DNA of 64,000 nucleotides from NCBI GenBank assembly GCA_001563335.1, contig LRSL01000055.1:1-64000 (forward strand). The letters run 5' to 3'. Below are positions 42,429 to 53,454 of this stretch, one piece after another (position 1 is the stretch's first letter; every line of letters begins with the position of its first letter). The notes under the pieces were generated by a model. That model was not told the DNA's origin, did no database searches, and saw only the letters and a program-made list of their open reading frames with translations. This DNA comes from Candidatus Thorarchaeota archaeon SMTZ1-45. Its GTDB lineage: Archaea > Asgardarchaeota > Thorarchaeia > Thorarchaeales > Thorarchaeaceae. The position numbers and the translations under genes are program-made.

Positions 42429-43160
42429 ATGAAAGAAGCGAAAAAAATCTTCAAGGCTGCTCGTGAGGAGGGCAGGACCTTTGTTCTTGAACACGAAGCA
42501 AAGGACATCATGAAGGCATATGGCATCCCAATTCCAGCCTATGCAACTGCAACTACGGTTGAAGAAGCAATTGAGAAATCCAAAAGCATGGGATTTCCCG
42601 TTGTACTCAAGATCCTTTCCAAAGATATTCTGCATAAGTCAGATGCAGGAGGCGTGAAGATTAATCTCAAGAATGAGGACGATGTTCGAAAAGCCTTCGA
42701 TGAGATTATGAAGAATGCAAAGAAGTATGGAAAAGAGAAAGGTTTGGAGATTGACTTGAGTCGTGGGGTTTTCATCTCCGATTTTGTAGACATGGGGACT
42801 GAGATCATTGTGGGAGTCACAAAGGATCCACAATTTGGTCATGCTCTTATGGCAGGTCTGGGCGGCATCTTTGTCGAGGTTCTCAAAGATGTGTCATTCA
42901 GACTGATTCCATTCTCAGAAACTGATGCTAGGGAGATGTTAAGCGAACTCAAAGCATACAAGATTCTCGAGGGTGTGAGAGGCGAGGGTCCCCGGGACAT
43001 TGACGCGTTAGTCGAAGTAATGCTCGCAGTTTCAAAGATGGTTGAGGAGAACCCTGAGATAATTGAACTTGACTGTAATCCAACATTCGTATATGAGAAA
43101 GGAAAAGGTGCCCTCGTGGTTGATGCGCGGATTTTGATAGAAAACCTCAACGAAACTTAG
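42429..43160 (+). CDS. acdB: ADP-forming acetate/acyl-CoA ligase beta subunit (ATP-grasp)
   Basis: FPVVLKI.S.DI.HKSD.GGV, DPQFG, ELD.NP, VDAR. Confidence 0.93.
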   Translation: MKEAKKIFKAAREEGRTFVLEHEAKDIMKAYGIPIPAYATATTVEEAIEKSKSMGFPVVLKILSKDILHKSDAGGVKINLKNEDDVRKAFDEIMKNAKKYGKEKGLEIDLSRGVFISDFVDMGTEIIVGVTKDPQFGHALMAGLGGIFVEVLKDVSFRLIPFSETDAREMLSELKAYKILEGVRGEGPRDIDALVEVMLAVSKMVEENPEIIELDCNPTFVYEKGKGALVVDARILIENLNET

Positions 43161-44353
43161 TCACTAATCATAGTATGAAGAAGAACTAGACCTCTCTTGA
43201 GATCGATGTCCTTCAGAGGATCTTTTGATGATGTCTTTGTAGCTGTGGCTAGAAGCAACAAGAGTGCAACCAATCTAGGCACAAGTCTAGCGTACTGAAG
43301 TAGGAAGTCTTTGTTTCCAGTTGAGTCTACAACAAGACCTTCAAGACGTCTTATCAAAAGCTGAATCCTCTCTTCTACGCCATTATCAAGTTTAAGTCCT
43401 CGAAAAAGCTGAATCGCCACTGATTCATCTTGCAAGAAGGCAGATGAAACACCAATATTCTCGAACATCTGCAAAGCATTGAGAATAGTAGAGTCGTAGT
43501 GCTCATCTTCGAGCCGTTCTATCTCTTGTTTTACAGCCTGAAGTTGACCTAGAAAACGGAGTGAGTTTGTCAGTATAGTCCGCGAAGCCCCAGAGGTGGC
43601 TGGAGCCATTTCTGCTAAATAATCACCATGAACCTTCTCAAGGCGTGCAGCAGCTGACGAGTTCAGTTTTCTCTCGAACCCTGGAGAGAATCCAACACTT
43701 GCTGCTTTTGGCAGAACAGGATGCGACCCCAATCTACGAATTACAGTCAGCGCTTTGAAATCCTCACTTGGAACATAGAAGCAAAGTATTCGGAGTATGT
43801 CATATGCTGTTTCAAAGTCAGTTTCTGATATCACATTGCGACCTTGTCCTTTGCATGCAAAAGCACTAAGAATAGCCCATGAAGAAATAAAACTCTCACG
43901 AAGGTCATCTCGTTGGACTTTATCTGCCACCTCATGTTCTTTCAAGAAACGAAACAATTTCTCTGCAGCACCTGAGATTCTCTGTAGAGTATTGGGTCCA
44001 AATTGGAGGTCAGTTATGGACTTAATGAAGTTCCTTGGTTCCCTAGAGGGTGGTCTTAATACAAAACCAGGCTCATTTCTGGTCATTAGCCACCATTTTG
44101 ATGTTGAAGTGAAATAGTCAAGCACATCAATTGCTTCAGTGACATCAGTTGGATTTGCTAGATCTCGGGATTCTAAATATGCCACAAGTTTCGTGAAGAG
44201 ACTGACAAATCGTGTTAGATGGACTGATATCTTGGACCCTAAGAACAGAAAATCTGTAAACCTAGTTACTACTATTTCGATTTGTTTAGGGACAGAGTCC
44301 TCTACCGTTATTCCTAGCAAACCTTTGTAGACTTCAACTGGAGTTCGCGTCAA
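43157..44353 (-). CDS. Hypothetical all-helical protein with ~4 internal repeats
   Basis: 398 aa; recurring A....R..h...Dh..A..hL motif. Confidence 0.7.
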   Translation of the reverse strand: MTRTPVEVYKGLLGITVEDSVPKQIEIVVTRFTDFLFLGSKISVHLTRFVSLFTKLVAYLESRDLANPTDVTEAIDVLDYFTSTSKWWLMTRNEPGFVLRPPSREPRNFIKSITDLQFGPNTLQRISGAAEKLFRFLKEHEVADKVQRDDLRESFISSWAILSAFACKGQGRNVISETDFETAYDILRILCFYVPSEDFKALTVIRRLGSHPVLPKAASVGFSPGFERKLNSSAAARLEKVHGDYLAEMAPATSGASRTILTNSLRFLGQLQAVKQEIERLEDEHYDSTILNALQMFENIGVSSAFLQDESVAIQLFRGLKLDNGVEERIQLLIRRLEGLVVDSTGNKDFLLQYARLVPRLVALLLLLATATKTSSKDPLKDIDLKRGLVLLHTMISD

Positions 44354-45253: not shown

Positions 45254-45625
45254 TTAGATCATTTTCGCAATCTTCTCTGCAGCACGTTTCATATCTAAGA
45301 ATATGAGACCTAGTTTGGCATTTGCAGTGGTGGAAACAGTCAGACAAGCGTTGATGCCAGCTGCCGTGACCAACAACCAGCCATCGACACCCTTGACATT
45401 GACTTGCTCAAGGTTGCCTTTCCCAAGCTCTATCGCCGCTCTCTCACCAAGACTCAGCATAGCAGCAGTCATTGCTGCGACCTTTGCCTCATCTACATCT
45501 GTGGGAAGAGCCGAAACAATTGGTAACCCTTCTACACTAACTATAGCACAGGCTTCAATCTCGGGAATGCTTCCTTGTAGTTCGTTCAGAACACCTTCGA
45601 GAGTATTTTCGCGGGTCTCTGCCAT
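45254..45625 (-). CDS. Roadblock/LC7 (MglB-like) protein
   Basis: IVSVEGLPI.S.LP..VAAM.AA.LSLGER..EL.KG.LEQV..LGLIFLDM. Confidence 0.92.
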   Translation of the reverse strand: MAETRENTLEGVLNELQGSIPEIEACAIVSVEGLPIVSALPTDVDEAKVAAMTAAMLSLGERAAIELGKGNLEQVNVKGVDGWLLVTAAGINACLTVSTTANAKLGLIFLDMKRAAEKIAKMI

Positions 45626-45638
45626 TTGGTCTCACCTG

Positions 45639-46211
45639 TCATTTGTACATTCTTTTCAGGATGACTTCTCTTGCTATTGCTTGAAAAGCCCTCTTAACTC
45701 CTACGCCCTGTACAGCAATTGTTTCATAGATGGGTACATTTCCACCAAGACCAAGTAGGTCGAGCATTTCATCTCGTGACATCCTGTTTGGTAAGTCTCG
45801 CTTGTTTAGCATGACTACTATCGGAATTTCACGACCAAGAGCATCACCGAGGAACAACTTTAGCTCCTCGAAACTCTCTGTGTTCTCATCGCGCTGATCC
45901 GGTGAAGAGTCTGCAACAAATAGGATTCCATCAGTGCCCTGAAGCACCACCTTTCTCTGATGCCTGTGTCGTTTCTGTCCAGCCACTGTGAAGACATCGA
46001 AAAGCACTCGGCCACCCGCTGACATAGGGACATAGTCAAAGAACAGCGTACGATTGGTTTCATCCTCAATTGCAGTGAACTCTCCCTTCTGTAGCCCTTC
46101 TACTTTTCCATAAAGCCAGCGGAGCGCGGTTGTTTTGCCTCCTAGGGACGGGCCATAGAATACTAGTTTGAGATGAATTCGTCCCTTGTCGTCTTTTCGA
46201 ATTGTAAACAC
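45639..46211 (-). CDS. mglA: MglA-type small GTPase
   Basis: KLVFYGPSLGGKTT, RTLFFD, FTVAGQ, L.G.DG..FVADS, NKRD. Confidence 0.88.
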   Translation of the reverse strand: MFTIRKDDKGRIHLKLVFYGPSLGGKTTALRWLYGKVEGLQKGEFTAIEDETNRTLFFDYVPMSAGGRVLFDVFTVAGQKRHRHQRKVVLQGTDGILFVADSSPDQRDENTESFEELKLFLGDALGREIPIVVMLNKRDLPNRMSRDEMLDLLGLGGNVPIYETIAVQGVGVKRAFQAIAREVILKRMYK

Positions 46212-46273
46212 CTCATTGTGTCACTGCAGAGGTCCCTGTAGTGGGATGTTGGTTGAGTAAAGTTCTGTCTAAT

Positions 46274-46315
46274 AAAAGCCTTTGTGGCACGAGAGGGTGC
46301 CCTCGGACGGCTTTT
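46274..46315. terminator. Hairpin with A/T flanks between mglB-like and mglA
   Basis: AAAAGCC...GGCAC-GAGAGG-GTGCC...GGCTTTT. Confidence 0.45.
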
Positions 46316-46399
46316 TGGTTGACTGAACTGATTCACTCCAGTACTCATGATTACTGGAACAGCCAAGCGTGGATACATCTGTGTGTGATATGTATGATT

Positions 46400-46864
46400 T
46401 CACACACGCTCGAGCTCAGCCAGGGCAGATTTTAGGTCTTCTTCGTCAAGCTCGCTCTCTTTGGGAGATAATGGCTCCACTGCAAGGAACTTGTCAAGCT
46501 CATTAGCTAGTTGTACACCTTGTTTCTTCATCACAAGCCGGATCAGACCAATATTCACCTCTGCCTCAGAAACTACACAGAGTACACCTTTCCCACAAGC
46601 TGAGGCGAAAATTTTGCCCTCCGAGAACTCAGAAGTGACTATCTCAAGCTCCCCAATCTGCAGGTTCTTGCCCTGCTCCTCACTTGCACAGAAGACCGCA
46701 CTGGCAATGGCTCCAATTGAGTCGACGTCTACTGGGTAGTAGCTCAGCTTCGACACATTAGCTATTGTGAGGCCTGTCTTGTCGACTAGTATGACCTTTT
46801 TGATACCTTTGTCTTGGCGAATGATCTCTGTCAAAATTTTATCAAACGCCTTTGGGTCGCTCAT
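46400..46864 (-). CDS. mglB: Roadblock/MglB-like protein with acidic C-terminal helix
   Basis: VILVDKTGL.I, IGAIASAVF, GKIF..V.IGLIRL; tail ESELDEEDLKSALAELE. Confidence 0.82.
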   Translation of the reverse strand: MSDPKAFDKILTEIIRQDKGIKKVILVDKTGLTIANVSKLSYYPVDVDSIGAIASAVFCASEEQGKNLQIGELEIVTSEFSEGKIFASACGKGVLCVVSEAEVNIGLIRLVMKKQGVQLANELDKFLAVEPLSPKESELDEEDLKSALAELERV

Positions 46865-46890
46865 TCATAGTTCACCTCAATCTTATTCTC

Positions 46891-47193
46891 TTACTGATTG
46901 TTCTTAAGGACTACTAGGATGAGTCCTTCGTTCACTTCCGGTGCGATGTTAATCTGACCCTTGGTTGTATCCAAGGTCAGAAATGACAACGACCCCTCTC
47001 GAAGTTCTCGCACAGCATCTAGTGCTTTTCCAACGAGGGAGGTGATTATTGCAGCGACGTTCTCTGTAGTTTCCGGGTCTAGATCACTACTGAGTGGCAG
47101 ACCTTCCAAGGTGGTCACGACAACTCCTCGGACTCCTTCTTGTGACTTAAGTTTAGAAAGAATCCCTTGGAGCTTTTCTTGGCTAATCACCAT
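46891..47193 (-). CDS. Roadblock/LC7 protein
   Basis: GVRGVVV.T.EGLPL.SDL..E.VAA..L..L.L.T..G.I.IAP..LILVVL. Confidence 0.9.
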   Translation of the reverse strand: MVISQEKLQGILSKLKSQEGVRGVVVTTLEGLPLSSDLDPETTENVAAIITSLVGKALDAVRELREGSLSFLTLDTTKGQINIAPEVNEGLILVVLKNNQ

Positions 47194-47431
47194 ACAGAGG
47201 CCTCGCTGATTCAACTGTGCCTTAACATCTACGCCGCAGTTGACTATTTTAGACTTGTGGAGATATGTTACCAACCCACGTAGCTCATTTGCGCATTTGA
47301 AGAATATTTGGGGTTGTGTTACATCATCTGTGGGGATTTTATACCTTCATTCATAATAAAGAATTGATTCCAGTGTCGTTCCTGGAAGGACATGAATAAT
47401 GCCCAGTAAACAATGAACGATTGTGTTACAT

Positions 47432-47471
47432 AAAAAAAGAAGCGTGGTCGTGTTAGAAAAACACACGACCA
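47432..47471 (-). terminator. Intrinsic-type terminator after the Sec23/24-like gene
   Basis: 9-bp perfect stem TGGTCGTGT/ACACGACCA followed on the minus strand by CGCTTCTTTTTTT. Confidence 0.65.
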
Positions 47472-47490
47472 TTGATTTTGATTCAAAGTA

Positions 47491-49113
47491 TTAGGCTTCT
47501 TCATCTTTGTCAAAGAGTTTCTTTGAGCTTCTTTTCATCTGAGCAAGACTACCTGTGAAAGCTTCATCAGCAGCTCCTGATGGGCCTGCAGCTGGAGCCT
47601 CAGCCATCATCTCCTCCTGACGAGTAATCTCAGCCTCCTCGTTGTTCAAGACATTGTCAGTCTTATCCAACATTGCTTGAACGCTAGCAGGAGCAGACTT
47701 TGCCTTTGTCTTCAGAGCCTTTCTGAATGAGGCGATCCGCTCTCGCCCCTTCTCCCTATCACCACGGAAAGACTCTTCCCCAGCTTTCTGTGTCACAAAG
47801 GTTGCACCAACTGTTGGGTCGAGGGTTTCCATTATTTCTTCCTCTTTCTTGGTAACACGAAGCTTGGTTGTCACCACACGAACTCTTCGTGCACCCTCTT
47901 CATCAGTGTAAGATACTTGGACCTGTATTGGTACTTCAGGCGCCTTAATCTCCATTTCTGGTTCAACCTCAAAGTATAGCTCATGATCCTCACCAACAAC
48001 TCCAATCTTACTCTCGCCGTTCTTCTTCAACTGGTCAACAACAGCCCGGGAAACTCCAGAGGCATCTTTGACTTTCACACCTGGAGGTGTGACAAGCCGC
48101 ACCTCTACATCCCTACCTAGAAGAGATGCTCCAGCCAATTCAGAGAGACTGCGATCAAGCTCATTTGGAGTCACATAGTACATCTGACCACCAGTTGCTT
48201 CAGGTAAGAGCCCTAACGTCTGAAGCTCCATGCCAGCACCTGAGGCAATACCAACTACATCGACCGCGGTACCGAGTTCCATGAACATCTTTCCTAGGTC
48301 CTCGTAGTATTTACTCGCAGGAGTGACCTGATATCCCTCAAGAGCACCAATACCTTCGTTAGCAAGCCCATCCGTGAGAAGGACCACTCTTCCAACATTG
48401 CGATGCTTGGCAATGACATAGGCCATTCCAACTGCTGGGCCCAACGCAGTGCCACCTTGGTCACGGAGTGTTTGTACATGCTTTTTTAGCCGGTCCTTGT
48501 TCTTTCCCACACCTACTAATTTCACCTGGTCAAGAAGCTTCTTTGTAGACTCCATGATATCTTTAAGACTCGCAAAGGAGTCTCTCGGAAGTTCAACTGG
48601 ATTTCCGTTTTCCAGATTTCGAGCAACAACAGAGCTCTCAAACTCTATCAATCCAAACATGGTGTCTGGTGCGTTCGCGGCAAGACTGTCAATGGATGTG
48701 TTCAGACTGCGTTTAACTGCAGCTAGGTTTGCTCCAGCCATTGATCCTGAAACATCAATTAGCCCAAGAAATGAACGTCCGCCTACAGAGATTGTTTCCG
48801 TTTCGGTGGTTGTGTCTGGTGGCGGGTTAACAATGAAATCGGTGTCATCACCTGCTACTACAATCTCACCCTCAATGACATTTAGAGTTCCACAGAAAGG
48901 ACAAACAAAGTGTTTGCCCACCTTTGGATCGTCTTCTATTTGGTCTACACTAAGAAGGAAGCCATTACATTTGTGGCATGCAATGGGCTTTCCTACAATC
49001 TTTGTGGTTTCATGCGCAAGATGACCAAATTCTACACGCAGGACATATGGAATATCGCTCAGTACTTTTTTCGAAGCTGGAAAAGCCGCTGAGCTAGTTC
49101 TCAACATAGGCAT
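47491..49113 (-). CDS. Sec23/Sec24-like protein (Zn finger + vWA trunk + beta-sandwich)
   Basis: PIACHKC..FVCPFCGTLN; LIDVSGSM; TALGPA; LLTDGLAN.G.G; EATGG; QVSYTDEEGARRVRV.T. Confidence 0.82.
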   Translation of the reverse strand: MPMLRTSSAAFPASKKVLSDIPYVLRVEFGHLAHETTKIVGKPIACHKCNGFLLSVDQIEDDPKVGKHFVCPFCGTLNVIEGEIVVAGDDTDFIVNPPPDTTTETETISVGGRSFLGLIDVSGSMAGANLAAVKRSLNTSIDSLAANAPDTMFGLIEFESSVVARNLENGNPVELPRDSFASLKDIMESTKKLLDQVKLVGVGKNKDRLKKHVQTLRDQGGTALGPAVGMAYVIAKHRNVGRVVLLTDGLANEGIGALEGYQVTPASKYYEDLGKMFMELGTAVDVVGIASGAGMELQTLGLLPEATGGQMYYVTPNELDRSLSELAGASLLGRDVEVRLVTPPGVKVKDASGVSRAVVDQLKKNGESKIGVVGEDHELYFEVEPEMEIKAPEVPIQVQVSYTDEEGARRVRVVTTKLRVTKKEEEIMETLDPTVGATFVTQKAGEESFRGDREKGRERIASFRKALKTKAKSAPASVQAMLDKTDNVLNNEEAEITRQEEMMAEAPAAGPSGAADEAFTGSLAQMKRSSKKLFDKDEEA

Positions 49114-49298
49114 CAGTATTTGCCTCCAAAATAATTCGAGTGACCTTTGCGTGAGGAGTTTTAAGTGATTCTACGAAGAATGCTTCTTCGTGTACAAGAT
49201 AGTAATCTATAATGAACACTACAGACCAACACACAAGATATTTACATGCCTAATACCTGAAAGCAGATAGACAATTCAGGCCTCTTGGGAGGAATTTC

Positions 49299-49664
49299 AT
49301 GATGGATAAAGCTAAGATTGAAAAAGTTGTATCAGAAACGATGGCTGCCAATGCAGATTTGGAAGGTATAGTCATATGTGATGCTAAAGGAAGTGTGCTC
49401 TTTGGTCACACAATTAGTGGAGGGACAAAGCATTCAGACATAGCAAACCTTGCGGTGAAGATAGCAGCTAACTCGTCCCAGCTCTCAGCTGGTCTAGACA
49501 AGGGGGGCCTGAAGGAAGTCAATATTGCATCAGATACCGGTTTCATTCTTATCCTCGGCGATGTTAAATTGGTACTAACGGGAGTCGCAGGAGAAGGAGC
49601 GAGAGAGTCACTAGGGCTTCTCAGAATGGCTCTGCGAAGAGCGCTTTTGCAAATGGTTACATAG
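49299..49664 (+). CDS. Roadblock/LC7-like protein
   Basis: LEGIVICDAKG.VL..L..GL.KG.L.EV.I..D.GFILI..LGLLRM. Confidence 0.8.
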   Translation: MMDKAKIEKVVSETMAANADLEGIVICDAKGSVLFGHTISGGTKHSDIANLAVKIAANSSQLSAGLDKGGLKEVNIASDTGFILILGDVKLVLTGVAGEGARESLGLLRMALRRALLQMVT

Positions 49665-49863: not shown

Positions 49864-52800
49864 TTGGTTCATATTGAGAAGCTTGTATGCAAGGGCTTCA
49901 AATCATTTGGACGAGAGACAGTCACCATTAAGCTAAACCCAGGTTTCACGTGCATAGTTGGACCAAATGGATCTGGCAAGTCCAATGTTGTTGATGCCAT
50001 TCTCTTTGTGTTGGGACAACTAAGTGCTAAGACTCTTCGTGCTAATGTGTTTTCGGACTTGCTATATTCTCCGCCGAAACCAAATATGCCTCCAAAAGCT
50101 AAGTCTGCTCATGTAGAGTTGCACTTCGATAATAAGGATAGAAAATTACAGATTGATGCGGATCGTGTTGTGATTGAAAGAGAATTAGATGATTCTGGAA
50201 AATCAGTATGCCGCATCAATGGAAAAGTAGTTACTCGTACTGCAGTGTTGGATGTATTAGGCGCCATTGGAGTGGACCCCAATGGGTACAACCTTGTCCT
50301 CCAAGGGGAGATTGCTCAGATGGTCAAGGTTAGTCCAATAGAGCGAAGGAAATTGATAGAGGATATCGCAGGAATATCAGCTTATGATGAACAGAAGGAA
50401 CGCGCTCTCAAAAAGCTGGCTGAAAGTGAGAGCAACTTGGGTAAAGTTGACATGCAGCTTCAGGAAAGGCGCCGACAGCTTGAGAAATTAGAAGAAGATA
50501 TGTCTGATGCGCGTAGGTATCAGAGTCTCCATAATCAGACACGAACACACAGAGTTGACATTCTCGCATGGAGTACCATAAAGGGTAATTCTAGGATTGA
50601 AACCATCAACGAAACGCTGGCGCAACGCGCTGAAGAGGCCGAGAGTCTTGTCAAGGAATTTGTAGAAGTGGAAACAGGTATACAGAGCACGGAAACTGAG
50701 ATTGAGAAGATAGATCATGAGATTGATCAGATCACTGGAGGAGATTCAACTAGGGTATCAGAACAGTATGGTATAGTTTCTGCTGCTGTTTCTCATGTAA
50801 GAGGTGACCTGGAGAGAGCTCAAGCAGAGTTTGACAAGGTAGCTGGAGAGATGTTGGCGCTCAGTGAGGAACTTGAAACTGTACAAGATGAGATTAGTCA
50901 CAATGAACAGGTTTTGGCGGACAAGAACAACGAACTGACTGGTCTTGAAAAAGAGATAGCAGGTACAGCTGCAGAGATCATCCGATTAGAGGACATGTCA
51001 GAAAGGGCACAGATTGAATATTATGAAACTACACTACGGCTTCAGGATTTGAACAATCAAATGAGACACCTAGATGAGGGTGTTTCTGAAGTTCGATCAA
51101 CGATAAAGTCAGACAACAGGGAGTTAGGACTTGCATATGAGGAACTAAGAGATGCAAAGGAGAGTCTGGAGAAGACTGAAGCAGAGATTTTACAATTGAA
51201 GGAAACCGTTCCTGAGAAGAGAACTGAGCTCGAAAAGTCCGAACAGCTCGAGCGAACTCGACAGGCTGAAATCGATGATTTGACTGAACGGCTTACAACT
51301 GTAGATGCAGAAGTTGCAGAGAGCACAAAAATAGTAGCTCAGACAAGAGAGGAGCTCATCAAGGTAAAGGCACGTCAAGACGCTTTGAAAGAGGCAGAGG
51401 ACGCGTTTCTTAAGAGACGTCGTGCAATCGCCACAGTTCTGGAGCTTAGAGATGCAGGTGCAATTGGTGGAATATATGGCACAGTAGCAGAGCTTGGAAC
51501 AATTGACCCAGACTATGCGGTAGCATTGGAAATAGCTGGGGGCAATAGACTCTCACATATTGTTGTTGAGAATGAGCGTGTTGCAACGGAATGTGTCAAC
51601 GTGTTGAAGAATGAGCGAGTTGGTAGAGCCGCGTTCATTCCACTTGACAAGATTAAGACTAGTGCTCCTGGAAAACTCCCCAAAGATGATGGAGTTATCG
51701 ACTTCGCATTGAACTTGGTGAAGTTTGATCCTAAAATGCACCCAGCATTTGAGTTTGTATTTTCTGATACAATTGTGACTGAGGATTTTGAAACAGCAAA
51801 ACGGCAAGGGTTCCAAGGACAGAGAGCAGTATCTCTTGAGGGAGATCTTGTAGAGCGTTCTGGATTGATTACAGGGGGATATTTCCAACAGGCCACAGCT
51901 GGGCTGTCGCTCCAGGTGGAGGACACTAGCCCTGAGATTGAGGATCGTCTTAAGGGATTGGAAGAGATTCTGACCGAGCTTCGTAGCAAGCAGGATGTTC
52001 TTCGGAAAGAGCTAAAGAGCTATGAAAAGGAAGTTCAAGGTCTTTCAAAGACAAATTACAAACTCCGTATGGAACTGGAGCGATTAGAAGAACGATTTGA
52101 AGAGCAAAAATCTAGATCTACGATATTACAGGAGCGAATAGACAAGGCGAGCCTCACAATCAATGAACTTGAATCTCAGATAAAAGACCTTCAAGAGCGC
52201 GATGATGAACTTAGTGTACAGCGAGAGAGAGTTCGTACTCAACGTGATGAAGCTAATGAAGCATTGGTCACCTCGGATGCCAACAAGCTCAATCAGGAAA
52301 TCAAGGATTTGAAGGAAGTACTGGAACAATATCAGAAACAAAGAGAGAAGCTTCAGAGTGAAATCACCTCTGTAAGAGTTGCGATTGATGAACGGCTTGG
52401 ACCTAAAGCCATTGAGCTTGAATCCAAGATTCAAGCTCACGATGCAATTATTCCAGGCCTTGAGGAGGAAGTGAAACGACTACAAATGGGACTCTCAGAG
52501 AGAGAAAGAGAGTTTGAGAAGCTCAAGGAAGAGCGGGAACGCATTGATGAGGCTGTAAAGGATAAGCGAGTTCGCCAGCTTGAATTAAAAGAAGACCTAC
52601 GAAATCTAAGGCTGCGGCATGAAGAGATTCGTGAAGCACAGACATCCAATGAAAAGGCAGTATATCGGCTTCAGACCGAACAAGGCAGACTAGAGGCGGA
52701 TGTCGTTGGATTTGTAGCTGAACTGAACACAGTTGGAAGCGCCCAAGAGGCTCTTGAGGAGAGAGCAGAAGAACGGGAACTCACCTACAAAGAGATAGAG

Positions 52801-53454
52801 GAACTTGAGGAGAAAATCAAAGAGATTGAGAGAGAACTCGAAGCCATGGGACCTGTCAACCTGAAGTCTCTGACAGACTATGACTTGGAGAAAGAACGGT
52901 ACGAAGAAATTGTTGACAAAAAGACTAGGTTGGAAAATGAACGAAAAGAGATACTTGTGTTCATGGAGGAACTTGAGGCTGAAAAAACACAGAAGTTCCT
53001 CACCGTCTACAACGAGATTGCTGACAACTTTTCAAAAGTTTTTGCAAAGCTTTCTCCTGATGGTGAAGCCAACCTCATGCTTGAGAATCCCGAACATCCT
53101 TTGATGGGAGGAATAACAGTCAGATCAAAACCACGCGGAAAAGAGCTGGTCACTCTTGATGCGATGAGTGGCGGAGAGAAGACGCTTACTGGATTGGCAC
53201 TCATTTTTGCCATTCAGATGTATAGTCCTGCAAGCTTCTACATATTTGATGAGATAGATGCTGCGCTTGACAATGTTAACGCTCATAATGTGGCACTACT
53301 CATCTCAGAGATGTCGAAAAACTCACAGTTTGTTGTTGTGTCCTTGAGAGACACCACAGTTCGAAAAGCTGATTTATTGGTTGGAGTATCAAATCAAGAT
53401 GGAATCTCAAGGATTGTTTCAGTCGATTTGGAGGAGGTTGCTACATCAGCATGA
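49864..53454 (+). CDS. smc: Chromosome segregation protein SMC
   Basis: GFKSF, GPNGSGKSN, coiled coils, hinge (G.YG.V.EL; GDL..SG.ITGG), MSGGE, DEIDAALD. Confidence 0.97.
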   Translation: MVHIEKLVCKGFKSFGRETVTIKLNPGFTCIVGPNGSGKSNVVDAILFVLGQLSAKTLRANVFSDLLYSPPKPNMPPKAKSAHVELHFDNKDRKLQIDADRVVIERELDDSGKSVCRINGKVVTRTAVLDVLGAIGVDPNGYNLVLQGEIAQMVKVSPIERRKLIEDIAGISAYDEQKERALKKLAESESNLGKVDMQLQERRRQLEKLEEDMSDARRYQSLHNQTRTHRVDILAWSTIKGNSRIETINETLAQRAEEAESLVKEFVEVETGIQSTETEIEKIDHEIDQITGGDSTRVSEQYGIVSAAVSHVRGDLERAQAEFDKVAGEMLALSEELETVQDEISHNEQVLADKNNELTGLEKEIAGTAAEIIRLEDMSERAQIEYYETTLRLQDLNNQMRHLDEGVSEVRSTIKSDNRELGLAYEELRDAKESLEKTEAEILQLKETVPEKRTELEKSEQLERTRQAEIDDLTERLTTVDAEVAESTKIVAQTREELIKVKARQDALKEAEDAFLKRRRAIATVLELRDAGAIGGIYGTVAELGTIDPDYAVALEIAGGNRLSHIVVENERVATECVNVLKNERVGRAAFIPLDKIKTSAPGKLPKDDGVIDFALNLVKFDPKMHPAFEFVFSDTIVTEDFETAKRQGFQGQRAVSLEGDLVERSGLITGGYFQQATAGLSLQVEDTSPEIEDRLKGLEEILTELRSKQDVLRKELKSYEKEVQGLSKTNYKLRMELERLEERFEEQKSRSTILQERIDKASLTINELESQIKDLQERDDELSVQRERVRTQRDEANEALVTSDANKLNQEIKDLKEVLEQYQKQREKLQSEITSVRVAIDERLGPKAIELESKIQAHDAIIPGLEEEVKRLQMGLSEREREFEKLKEERERIDEAVKDKRVRQLELKEDLRNLRLRHEEIREAQTSNEKAVYRLQTEQGRLEADVVGFVAELNTVGSAQEALEERAEERELTYKEIEELEEKIKEIERELEAMGPVNLKSLTDYDLEKERYEEIVDKKTRLENERKEILVFMEELEAEKTQKFLTVYNEIADNFSKVFAKLSPDGEANLMLENPEHPLMGGITVRSKPRGKELVTLDAMSGGEKTLTGLALIFAIQMYSPASFYIFDEIDAALDNVNAHNVALLISEMSKNSQFVVVSLRDTTVRKADLLVGVSNQDGISRIVSVDLEEVATSA

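Follow-up and report, generated by a model that had tools for sequence, protein, structure and literature searches.

Six adjacent genes between positions 45254 and 49664 of a 64,000-nucleotide (nt) stretch of DNA from Candidatus Thorarchaeota archaeon SMTZ1-45 (contig LRSL01000055.1; hereafter the window) encode an MglA-family small GTPase of the group-1 type (45639..46211, minus strand), four roadblock proteins, namely RblA (45254..45625, minus), RblB (46400..46864, minus), RblC (46891..47193, minus) and RblD (49299..49664, plus), and a Sec23/24-like protein (47491..49113, minus). Very probably, an ancient module of MglA and four roadblock genes and a Sec23/24-like gene of a published kind lie side by side here as two separate things. 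As parts of this reading, and held with the same good confidence, MglA and the four roadblock genes would constitute one ancient Asgard module conserved across several families, and the Sec23-like gene would have come to lie between RblC and RblD through an insertion basal to one sub-lineage of the window's family. An earlier interpretation made without database searches (the sequence-only reading) had pointed to the same six open reading frames (ORFs), all of which are present, and had proposed that the Sec23/24-like protein is an effector of the MglA GTPase. A synteny survey was run, and the Sec23-like gene was found to be unlinked to the GTPase and roadblock genes in related genomes, an outcome that this reading had itself named as refuting its proposal.

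The survey covered 61 related genomes, 36 of them from the window's own family (f1). The Sec23-like gene was present in 38 of the 61, including 33 of the 36 in the family, and in these 38 its linkage to mglA (orthologue threshold E<=1e-65) was sorted by hand comparison of coordinates. Both genes lay on one contig, 1.1 to 4.8 kb apart, in 24 genomes, all of family f1; they lay on different contigs, with a contig end near the Sec23-like gene, in nine genomes; they were clearly unlinked in four (G031, G037, G047 and G055); and the remaining genome (G057) had only a weak match to the von Willebrand factor A (vWA) domain. In each of the four unlinked cases, MglA is found in a separate cluster, flanked on either side by roadblock genes, and the Sec23-like gene is on another contig among unrelated housekeeping genes. 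Genes found beside it when unlinked, none of them common to those genomes, include GT2, DUF998, TauE, homoserine dehydrogenase, PHO4 and Fe-ADH.

A broader scan, taking one genome from each GTDB species and using a 9-sequence alignment as the query, yielded 54 archaeal loci that fall into two groups. The module genes are adjacent in all 31 loci in which the Sec23-like protein is at least 57% identical to that of the window, and they occur within the fetched flanks in none of the 23 loci in which the identity is 45% or lower. These 23 distant loci, some of which are the same contigs as in the 61-genome survey, are labelled as Thor-, Hermod-, Jord-, Frey-, Heimdall-, Odin- and Lokiarchaeota, among others. 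No conserved neighbour of the Sec23-like gene was seen in the distant genomes; between loci L031 to L035, that gene alone matched. At one locus (L084), in a metagenome-assembled genome (MAG) labelled Candidatus Hermodarchaeota, the arrangement is of the Thor type and the Sec23-like protein is 77% identical to the window's; as four other loci labelled Hermodarchaeota are 36-40% identical and unlinked, the label of L084 may not fit this contig.

Within the window's family, one 96%-complete genome (G030) carries an intact module, with an MglA that is 97% identical to the window's, and retains just a remnant of the Sec23-like gene, at L041:5983-6174, between RblD and RblC and in the right orientation. 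The remnant corresponds to the last approximately 30 codons (residues 509-538, 60% identity, E 4e-7), and no Sec23-like match was found elsewhere in G030. From these sequences, the gene appears to have been deleted in G030 and to be dispensable for the module. In the close genera the whole region of about 15 kb (acd, a 398-residue protein of no known family, UPP synthase, the module and SMC) is collinear. The block includes housekeeping genes, and adjacency there reflects common descent and is uninformative with regard to selection. The proposed role of the Sec23/24-like protein as an effector of MglA is thus not supported, given the unlinked state in all 23 distant loci and in the four surveyed genomes, as well as the deletion in G030.

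In contrast to the Sec23-like gene, the module recurs widely. An MglA orthologue is present in 51 of the 61 genomes, including eight families without any Sec23-like match, and MglA and roadblock genes adjoin one another in other families of the phylum as well. The comparison was extended to the surroundings of MglA in 13 further genomes and to three congener regions with long spacers. The order UPP synthase-RblA-MglA-RblB-RblC plus a divergent RblD, without a Sec23-like gene, is found in G030, G031, G037, G047, G057, G053, G039 and G043 (with RblA inverted in G039), and in the last seven of these RblD diverges from RblC with no Sec23-like gene between the two. RblA, RblB and RblC are present in G048 and G042, where RblD was undetected beside the module, and RblC alone adjoins MglA in G040 and G051. 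Every ORF falls in one of the four paralogue groups with E values of 1e-36 to 1e-85, the runner-up group reaching about 1e-17 at best; the group hidden Markov models were built from those same loci except for G030, which was also assigned correctly. The suggestion that an MglAB switch is joined here to a COPII-like adaptor is therefore left without support, the module being conserved without the Sec23-like gene.

MglA1-group GTPases have been recognised in Asgard archaea (Vargova et al. preprint 10.1101/2024.02.28.582541 and PMC10933270, both cited in part), and the available part of PMC13408092 refers to an AF3 model made for one MglA-MglB pair from Thorarchaeota. According to excerpts of Tran et al. 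2024 (PMC10933270), GTPase genes of strain MK-D1 are generally found outside operons with roadblock (RB) genes, so that a conserved five-gene cluster represents a useful exception. Our literature search did not find a description of an MglA-four-roadblock cluster, and wording on gene neighbourhoods or synteny was not found in the portion of the Vargova et al. preprint at hand.

The GTPase (190 amino acids, aa; a single-domain protein) matches four solved MglA sequences in the Protein Data Bank (PDB) at E 3.2e-38 to 8.8e-38, as compared with 6.5e-12 for the best Arf. It aligns to solved MglA over residues 11-185, and the stretch from the P-loop to switch I is ungapped. The switch-I arginine (Arg54) is at least 90% conserved among 13 orthologues, in which T55, T75, A77, G78, Q79, N136, K137 and D139 are invariant; these include the G3 motif (T75-V-A-G-Q79) and the G4 motif (N136-K-R-D139). 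The sequence-only reading had recognised the protein by its RTLFFD, TVxGQ and NKRD signatures, and both the PDB matches and the conservation among orthologues bear this out. With its best matches to MglA, an intrinsic switch-I arginine, TxxGQ and NKxD, the protein classifies by sequence as a group-1-type MglA (MglA1). The roles of the switch-I Arg, the G3 Thr, the catalytic Gln and the NKxD motif are described in PMC10933270 and PMC3000849, of which excerpts were available.

Pairwise identities among the four roadblock proteins are only 17-29%, and the four appear to be distinct ancient paralogues; RblA, RblB and RblD are long forms, and RblC is the sole short form. RblA is a full-length roadblock protein of 123 aa encoded directly downstream of MglA. 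It matches Pfam Robl_LC7 (E 4.8e-17, 61.9 bits, cut-off 23) and PDB entry 7f8m ('Robl_LC7 domain-containing protein', E 7.3e-25), and its one-to-one orthologues, 49-77% identical, adjoin MglA in other families. RblB, 154 aa with a C-terminal extension, is the most MglB/LAMTOR2-like of the four: besides Robl_LC7 (1.3e-9, 38.1 bits, same cut-off) and MAPKK1_Int (1.3e-7), it matches MglB (E 2.9e-4) and LAMTOR2 (about 5e-3) in the PDB, and its orthologues are 55-87% identical. It reaches only 22.2 bits against the NCBIfam MglB equivalog NF052242, whose cut-off is 200, and RblA, RblC and RblD gave no matches to that model. Because RblB falls so far below this cut-off, none of the four was classed as MglB, and any MglB-like action of these proteins is something we infer by analogy. 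Compared with its intact counterpart in G057, the RblB gene of G047 carries a frame-shifting 29-nt insertion (L044:8118-8146, minus strand). A hairpin is present in this insertion, a 91-nt region folds with a z-score of -3.2, and either a small archaeal intron or a frameshift could account for the insertion.

RblC resembles the dynein light chain LC7: it matches Robl_LC7 (2.5e-16, 59.6 bits, cut-off 23), PDB entry 7f8f (94 aa, 'Robl_LC7 domain-containing protein', E 3e-26) and the eukaryotic dynein light chain roadblock (E 4.5e-13). The ORF as called (46891-47274) extends to a TTG at 47274; since orthologues measure 94-110 aa, the start is probably the ATG at 47193, yielding a protein of 100 aa and correcting that ORF. 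RblD (121 aa, full-length) is the least conserved paralogue (27-63% identical across orthologues) and is below threshold in Pfam (LAMTOR5 23.2 bits, cut-off 27; Robl_LC7 16.5 bits, cut-off 23). Its sole PDB match is 9jq8 ('Roadblock/LC7 domain protein', E 3.1e-8), and an AlphaFold2 (AF2) model built with 11 orthologues (mean predicted local distance difference test, pLDDT, 86.4) has the topology alpha-beta-beta-alpha-beta-beta-beta-alpha with both terminal helices. Judging from this match and the predicted topology, RblD is a roadblock protein despite its sub-threshold Pfam scores.

The Sec23/24-like gene, single-copy in its own genome, encodes 540 aa comprising a four-cysteine zinc finger, a vWA trunk, a beta-sandwich and a helical bundle; its close homologues carry source names of Candidatus Thorarchaeota. 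Pfam recognises Sec23_trunk (41.0 bits against a cut-off of 27) and Sec23_BS (39.8 against 33.5). In the zinc finger, which scores below threshold (17.4 vs 25 bits), C46, C49, C71 and C74 are nevertheless invariant in 30 homologues. An AF2 model built with 30 homologues (pLDDT 88.6, predicted template modelling score 0.89) ends in a helical bundle at residues of about 433-539, to which Pfam Sec23_helical gave no match. Foldseek placed Sec23/Sec24 chains first (E about 1e-31; TM score 0.70-0.73 on the query; alignments of 566-655 columns), well ahead of generic vWA proteins and Sulfolobus ArnAB, and a profile of the archaeal family matched Sec24 (E 6.9e-25) and Sec23A (8.8e-11); taken as a single sequence, the protein scored no more than 22 bits with the best PDB Sec24. 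No variation was seen at D120, S122, S124, T222 and D248 across 30 archaeal-type sequences, or at the equivalent positions of the 57 long relatives described below; this D-x-S-x-S, T, D pattern is that of a metal ion-dependent adhesion site (MIDAS)-type metal site.

A gelsolin domain, which carries the Arg finger of Sec23, is absent from the 540-aa protein according to both Pfam and the AF2 model. On sequence matches and predicted structure, the protein is a true Sec23/24 homologue without a gelsolin domain. The sequence-only reading had described a zinc finger, a vWA trunk and a beta-sandwich with no gelsolin domain, and Pfam, the invariant cysteines, AF2 and Foldseek all agree with that description. 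This gelsolin-less Asgard architecture is already published: as far as the accessible part of PMC11914678 goes, the gelsolin domain is missing from every Asgard Sec23-like protein, as are key residues for contact with Sar1, and three of these proteins co-precipitated with an Asgard Arf weakly and in a manner insensitive to nucleotide state. Complex prediction of the window's Sec23-like protein with MglA gave a score of 0.00 in both runs, made without controls, and counts neither way.

A search of 1.84 billion cluster representatives returned 980 matches at E<=1e-3. The top approximately 40 are archaeal-type proteins and fragments, mostly of 500-560 aa; longer proteins, of 700-940 aa, come next with E values from 1e-33 to 1e-22. 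In a Pfam scan of the 57 longest relatives (690 aa or more), VWA_2 was found in 55, Sec23_trunk in 45, the Sec23/Sec24 zinc finger in 20, Sec23_BS in 16, and Sec23_helical or Gelsolin in none. An N-terminal Ras-family domain was present in 18, the other 39 being unfused; in one of the fused proteins (P0169) the motifs of this domain run in the order G3-G4-G5-G1. The four fused relatives that were looked up (two from echinoderms, one from a crinoid and one from a nemertean) are all named 'circularly permutated Ras protein 1-like' (CPRas); among the unfused relatives, those with a source name belong to Platysulcus, a choanoflagellate and Heterostelium. With sea-urchin CPRas, the window protein can be aligned over residues 24-494 (129 bits, E 9e-36), and its scores against eukaryotic CPRas zinc-finger/vWA proteins (122-129 bits) contrast with the 22 bits for canonical Sec24; the unfused Platysulcus relative, for its part, scores 23 bits against Sec24A. 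By these comparisons the Sec23-like protein appears far nearer to the CPRas zinc-finger/vWA proteins than to canonical Sec23/24. The CPRas family, with its four-Cys finger and 'Sec23/Sec24 trunk' half, was described as being of unknown function (Elias & Novotny 2008, PMC2430557), and our literature search did not find a paper joining CPRas with Asgard archaea.

At three loci, two labelled Heimdallarchaeota and one Bathyarchaeia, a Rab-like GTPase gene (motifs DTGGQE, GNKIDL and ETSAK) lies on the opposite strand about 3.9 kb from the Sec23-like gene (L099:1476-2099, L100:1416-2000 and L101:1330-2040). It was unseen in L103, and the flank of L105 is only 2.4 kb long.

Within the window, RblA lies 13 nt downstream of MglA, and RblB lies 188 nt upstream of it (spacer 46212..46399). 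The Sec23-like gene is separated from RblD by a divergent intergenic region of 185 nt and from RblC by a gap of 297 nt. Within the latter, starting 21 nt past the Sec23-like stop codon, a hairpin with a 7-bp stem (GGTCGTG/CACGACC) followed by seven T is present on the minus strand at 47432..47470. The terminator previously placed at 47432-47471 is visible in the sequence as this hairpin and T-run, but was not called by the terminator scan, which allows a loop of at most 8 nt as opposed to the 11 nt seen here. Counts from the promoter/terminator scan, which relies on a sigma-70-type and not an archaeal consensus, were near the shuffled expectation (9 vs 6.0 and 5 vs 3.9). The hairpin and T-run suggest that the Sec23-like gene may be transcribed separately from RblC.

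On the far side of RblD, an SMC gene (49864-53454) follows in the same orientation after 200 nt. The NCBIfam scan of the window proteins yielded no matches above any cut-off. Between acd and the UPP synthase gene, the 398-aa protein (43157-44353), which matches no Pfam or NCBIfam family, is conserved in other genera of the window's family at 44-50% identity. In the congeners G018, G013 and G019, the MglA-RblB spacer measures 2.3 to over 4 kb (L051:1287-5053, L052:1490-3796 and L053:1-4067) and carries genes for a SAM methyltransferase and an accompanying TetR regulator, as well as for a radical-SAM/SPASM enzyme, plus ORFs without a Pfam family.

How might the two parts work? Roadblock proteins would form dimers, to judge from the solved bacterial MglA-MglB complex and eukaryotic Ragulator. 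One dimer, most likely that of RblA and the MglB-like RblB, would dock on MglA and control how fast it hydrolyses GTP and exchanges nucleotide; because their genes flank mglA, these two are the likeliest platform for GTPase-activating protein (GAP) and guanine nucleotide exchange factor (GEF) activities. RblC, dynein-LC7-like and without a C-terminal helix, might form a second scaffold or adaptor with RblD. The likeliest guess for the output of the module is a spatial or polarity switch. The sequence-only reading had envisaged the four roadblocks as hetero-oligomeric GAP/GEF scaffolds; that they form one module with MglA, the orthologue of each paralogue being kept in order, holds up in outline, and hetero-oligomers are a plausible idea with which this conserved orthology agrees. 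The Sec23-like gene would have entered the divergent RblC/RblD intergenic region in one sub-lineage and probably forms its own transcription unit. Its product may act as a zinc-finger/vWA adaptor that binds partners via the MIDAS-type site, and any GTPase partner would more likely be Ras/Rab-like than MglA.

Several points weigh against the preferred reading. Adjacency has been kept in all 31 loci of the sub-lineage, in several genera, although the MglA-RblB spacer takes in foreign genes, and this retention could reflect selection; it is also possible that the Sec23-like gene and RblD are co-regulated, as the gene lies inside the module and the two share the divergent region. The genomes are related MAGs and thus non-independent samples, and several of the distant loci have short flanks (2.8 kb in L089 and 4.0 kb in L091). 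The low score of RblB against the MglB equivalog belongs here too, and the pairing of roadblocks and their GAP/GEF roles are drawn by analogy from bacterial and eukaryotic systems alone. One might argue that the Sec23-like protein, once its gene had been inserted, was recruited in this sub-lineage as an effector of GTP-bound MglA, with the GTPase's own Arg finger replacing that of the gelsolin domain, to serve as a membrane adaptor or proto-coat. Besides the adjacency (which extends to 24 of the 24 genomes with both genes on one contig) and the intergenic region shared with RblD, the intrinsic Arg finger of MglA would fit such a role, as would the finding that eukaryotic Sec23 is both a GTPase effector and a GAP (PMC11914678, excerpt). 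We nevertheless consider this recruitment very improbable: the gene is unlinked in 23 of 23 more distant loci; it was apparently deleted in G030, where the module is intact; the 15-kb block is collinear with its housekeeping genes included; a terminator-like site follows the gene; MglA is 99% identical within the genus and the Sec23-like protein 79-94%, with no sign of co-evolution; and the domain fused to the eukaryotic relatives is of the Ras type. Nor need all four roadblocks serve MglA, as RblD could belong functionally with SMC, which follows it in the same orientation in the window and in eight genomes (G028, G030, G031, G034, G035, G037, G047 and G057); RblD is in addition the least conserved paralogue and was undetected beside the module in G048 and G042. 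In G053, G039 and G043, however, RblD stays divergent from RblC and no SMC match was found in the fetched flank, so that the constant neighbour is the module and not SMC, and an SMC-bound role for RblD seems to us distinctly improbable.

What the Sec23-like protein does by itself admits two further proposals. Under the Rosetta-stone principle, the eukaryotic fusions hint at a Ras-type GTPase partner instead of MglA, and the protein might have as its partner a Ras/Rab-like GTPase from another part of the genome, mirroring CPRas. This is a tentative proposal that we would not favour as it stands. The 18 fused proteins among the 57 long relatives (the four looked up being CPRas-type by name), the extensive alignment with sea-urchin CPRas, the many small GTPases in the genome (10 matches) and the Rab-like gene about 3.9 kb away in three Heimdall-type loci speak for it. 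On the other hand, fused forms were seen in eukaryotes alone and 39 of the 57 long relatives lack the fusion, the archaeal loci have no conserved GTPase neighbour, the reported co-precipitation with Arf was weak and nucleotide-insensitive (PMC11914678, in part), and the function of CPRas is itself unknown (PMC2430557). Alternatively, the protein could be a GTPase-independent signalling adaptor resembling Sulfolobus ArnA/ArnB, a phosphorylation-controlled complex of zinc finger, vWA and beta-sandwich domains. PDB entry 8s05, named 'archaeal ortholog of the Sec23/24 core motif', was matched by Foldseek (E 8.5e-16) and by the profile (E 3e-13), the residues of the MIDAS-type motif are invariant, and the same domain arrangement has been noted in Sec23/24 (PMC12852372, excerpt). 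Yet ArnB (TM score 0.44 on the query) is a much poorer match than the Sec23/24 chains (E about 1e-31, TM score about 0.72), and neither an FHA protein nor a kinase was seen beside the Sec23-like gene among the neighbours scanned; we regard an ArnAB-like role as unlikely. A bolder reading would be that the Sec23-like proteins of the Asgard group represent the archaeal stock from which the eukaryotic CPRas zinc-finger/vWA family came, and that they act with Ras-type GTPases.

Asgard archaea are the closest known relatives of eukaryotes, and if a GTPase switch were physically tied to a COPII-like protein, this would be of direct relevance to the origins of membrane trafficking. If the Sec23-like protein were indeed an effector of MglA, a polarity GTPase tuned by four roadblocks would place a COPII-like adaptor on a membrane, a natural experiment in proto-coat assembly. 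With the adjacency being, in the preferred reading of two separate things, a late accident of one lineage, the link is removed as evidence on trafficking. The conserved group of MglA and four roadblocks, in turn, names likely regulators of one Asgard GTPase, and GTPase/roadblock pairs are hard to infer from Asgard genome layout (PMC10933270, cited in part). The nearness to CPRas should temper any reading of the Sec23-like protein as a direct ancestor of COPII, and points to Ras-type partners.

Among known systems, the Asgard Sec23-like proteins of PMC11914678 (available in part) have the same zinc finger, trunk, beta-barrel and helical domain, are likewise gelsolin-less and also have Sec23/24 as top Foldseek matches; operon or gene-neighbour wording was not found in the main text of that paper as available. 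The likeness to CPRas (PMC2430557) runs end to end through the zinc finger, vWA trunk, beta-sandwich and helical region, with the same invariant D-x-S-x-S, T, D and Cys residues. The window protein lacks the cpRAS GTPase domain and begins at the zinc-finger region, whereas the eukaryotic proteins have long N-terminal extensions; with respect to family membership, the permuted Ras domain (G3-G4-G5-G1-G2) is absent and the C-terminal module is homologous. With COPII Sec23/Sec24 it shares the fold, and the profile match to Sec24 runs from the zinc finger as far as where the helical domain begins, but the protein is gelsolin-less and so without a Sec23-type Arg finger, is encoded by a single gene as opposed to a Sec23/Sec24 pair, and has a neighbouring GTPase of the MglA type and not of the Sar1/Arf type. 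The Arco/Dip division oscillator of Haloferax (bioRxiv 10.64898/2026.07.23.738820) was considered as a counterpart but set aside, since there an SR-beta-like GTPase that has an amphipathic helix at its N terminus is paired with a SepF-like partner, not with a roadblock protein.

For the module, the nearest counterpart is bacterial MglA-MglB of Myxococcus xanthus and Thermus thermophilus, with the accessory roadblock protein MglC. The window GTPase shares the switch-I Arg, the G3 Thr, the catalytic Gln and NKxD, roadblock genes flank it, and RblB is weakly MglB-like with a C-terminal extension; there are, however, four roadblock paralogues here in place of one MglB homodimer, and the host is an archaeon. 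Asgard MglA1 and RB/RBLC7 proteins of the same kinds and from the same phylum are treated in PMC10933270, 10.1101/2024.02.28.582541 and PMC13408092; as far as the excerpts of these sources extend, they concern single proteins or one pair and make no mention of the conserved five-gene arrangement described here. Eukaryotic Ragulator (LAMTOR2/3 and LAMTOR4/5 with the Rag GTPases) has two long and two short forms (PMC10933270, excerpt), in contrast to three long and one short in the window, and the window MglA is without the C-terminal roadblock domain of the Rag GTPases. Ragulator likewise combines four different roadblock-fold subunits with a small GTPase, and weak profile matches to LAMTOR2, LAMTOR3 (MAPKK1_Int) and LAMTOR5 occur among the window's roadblock proteins.

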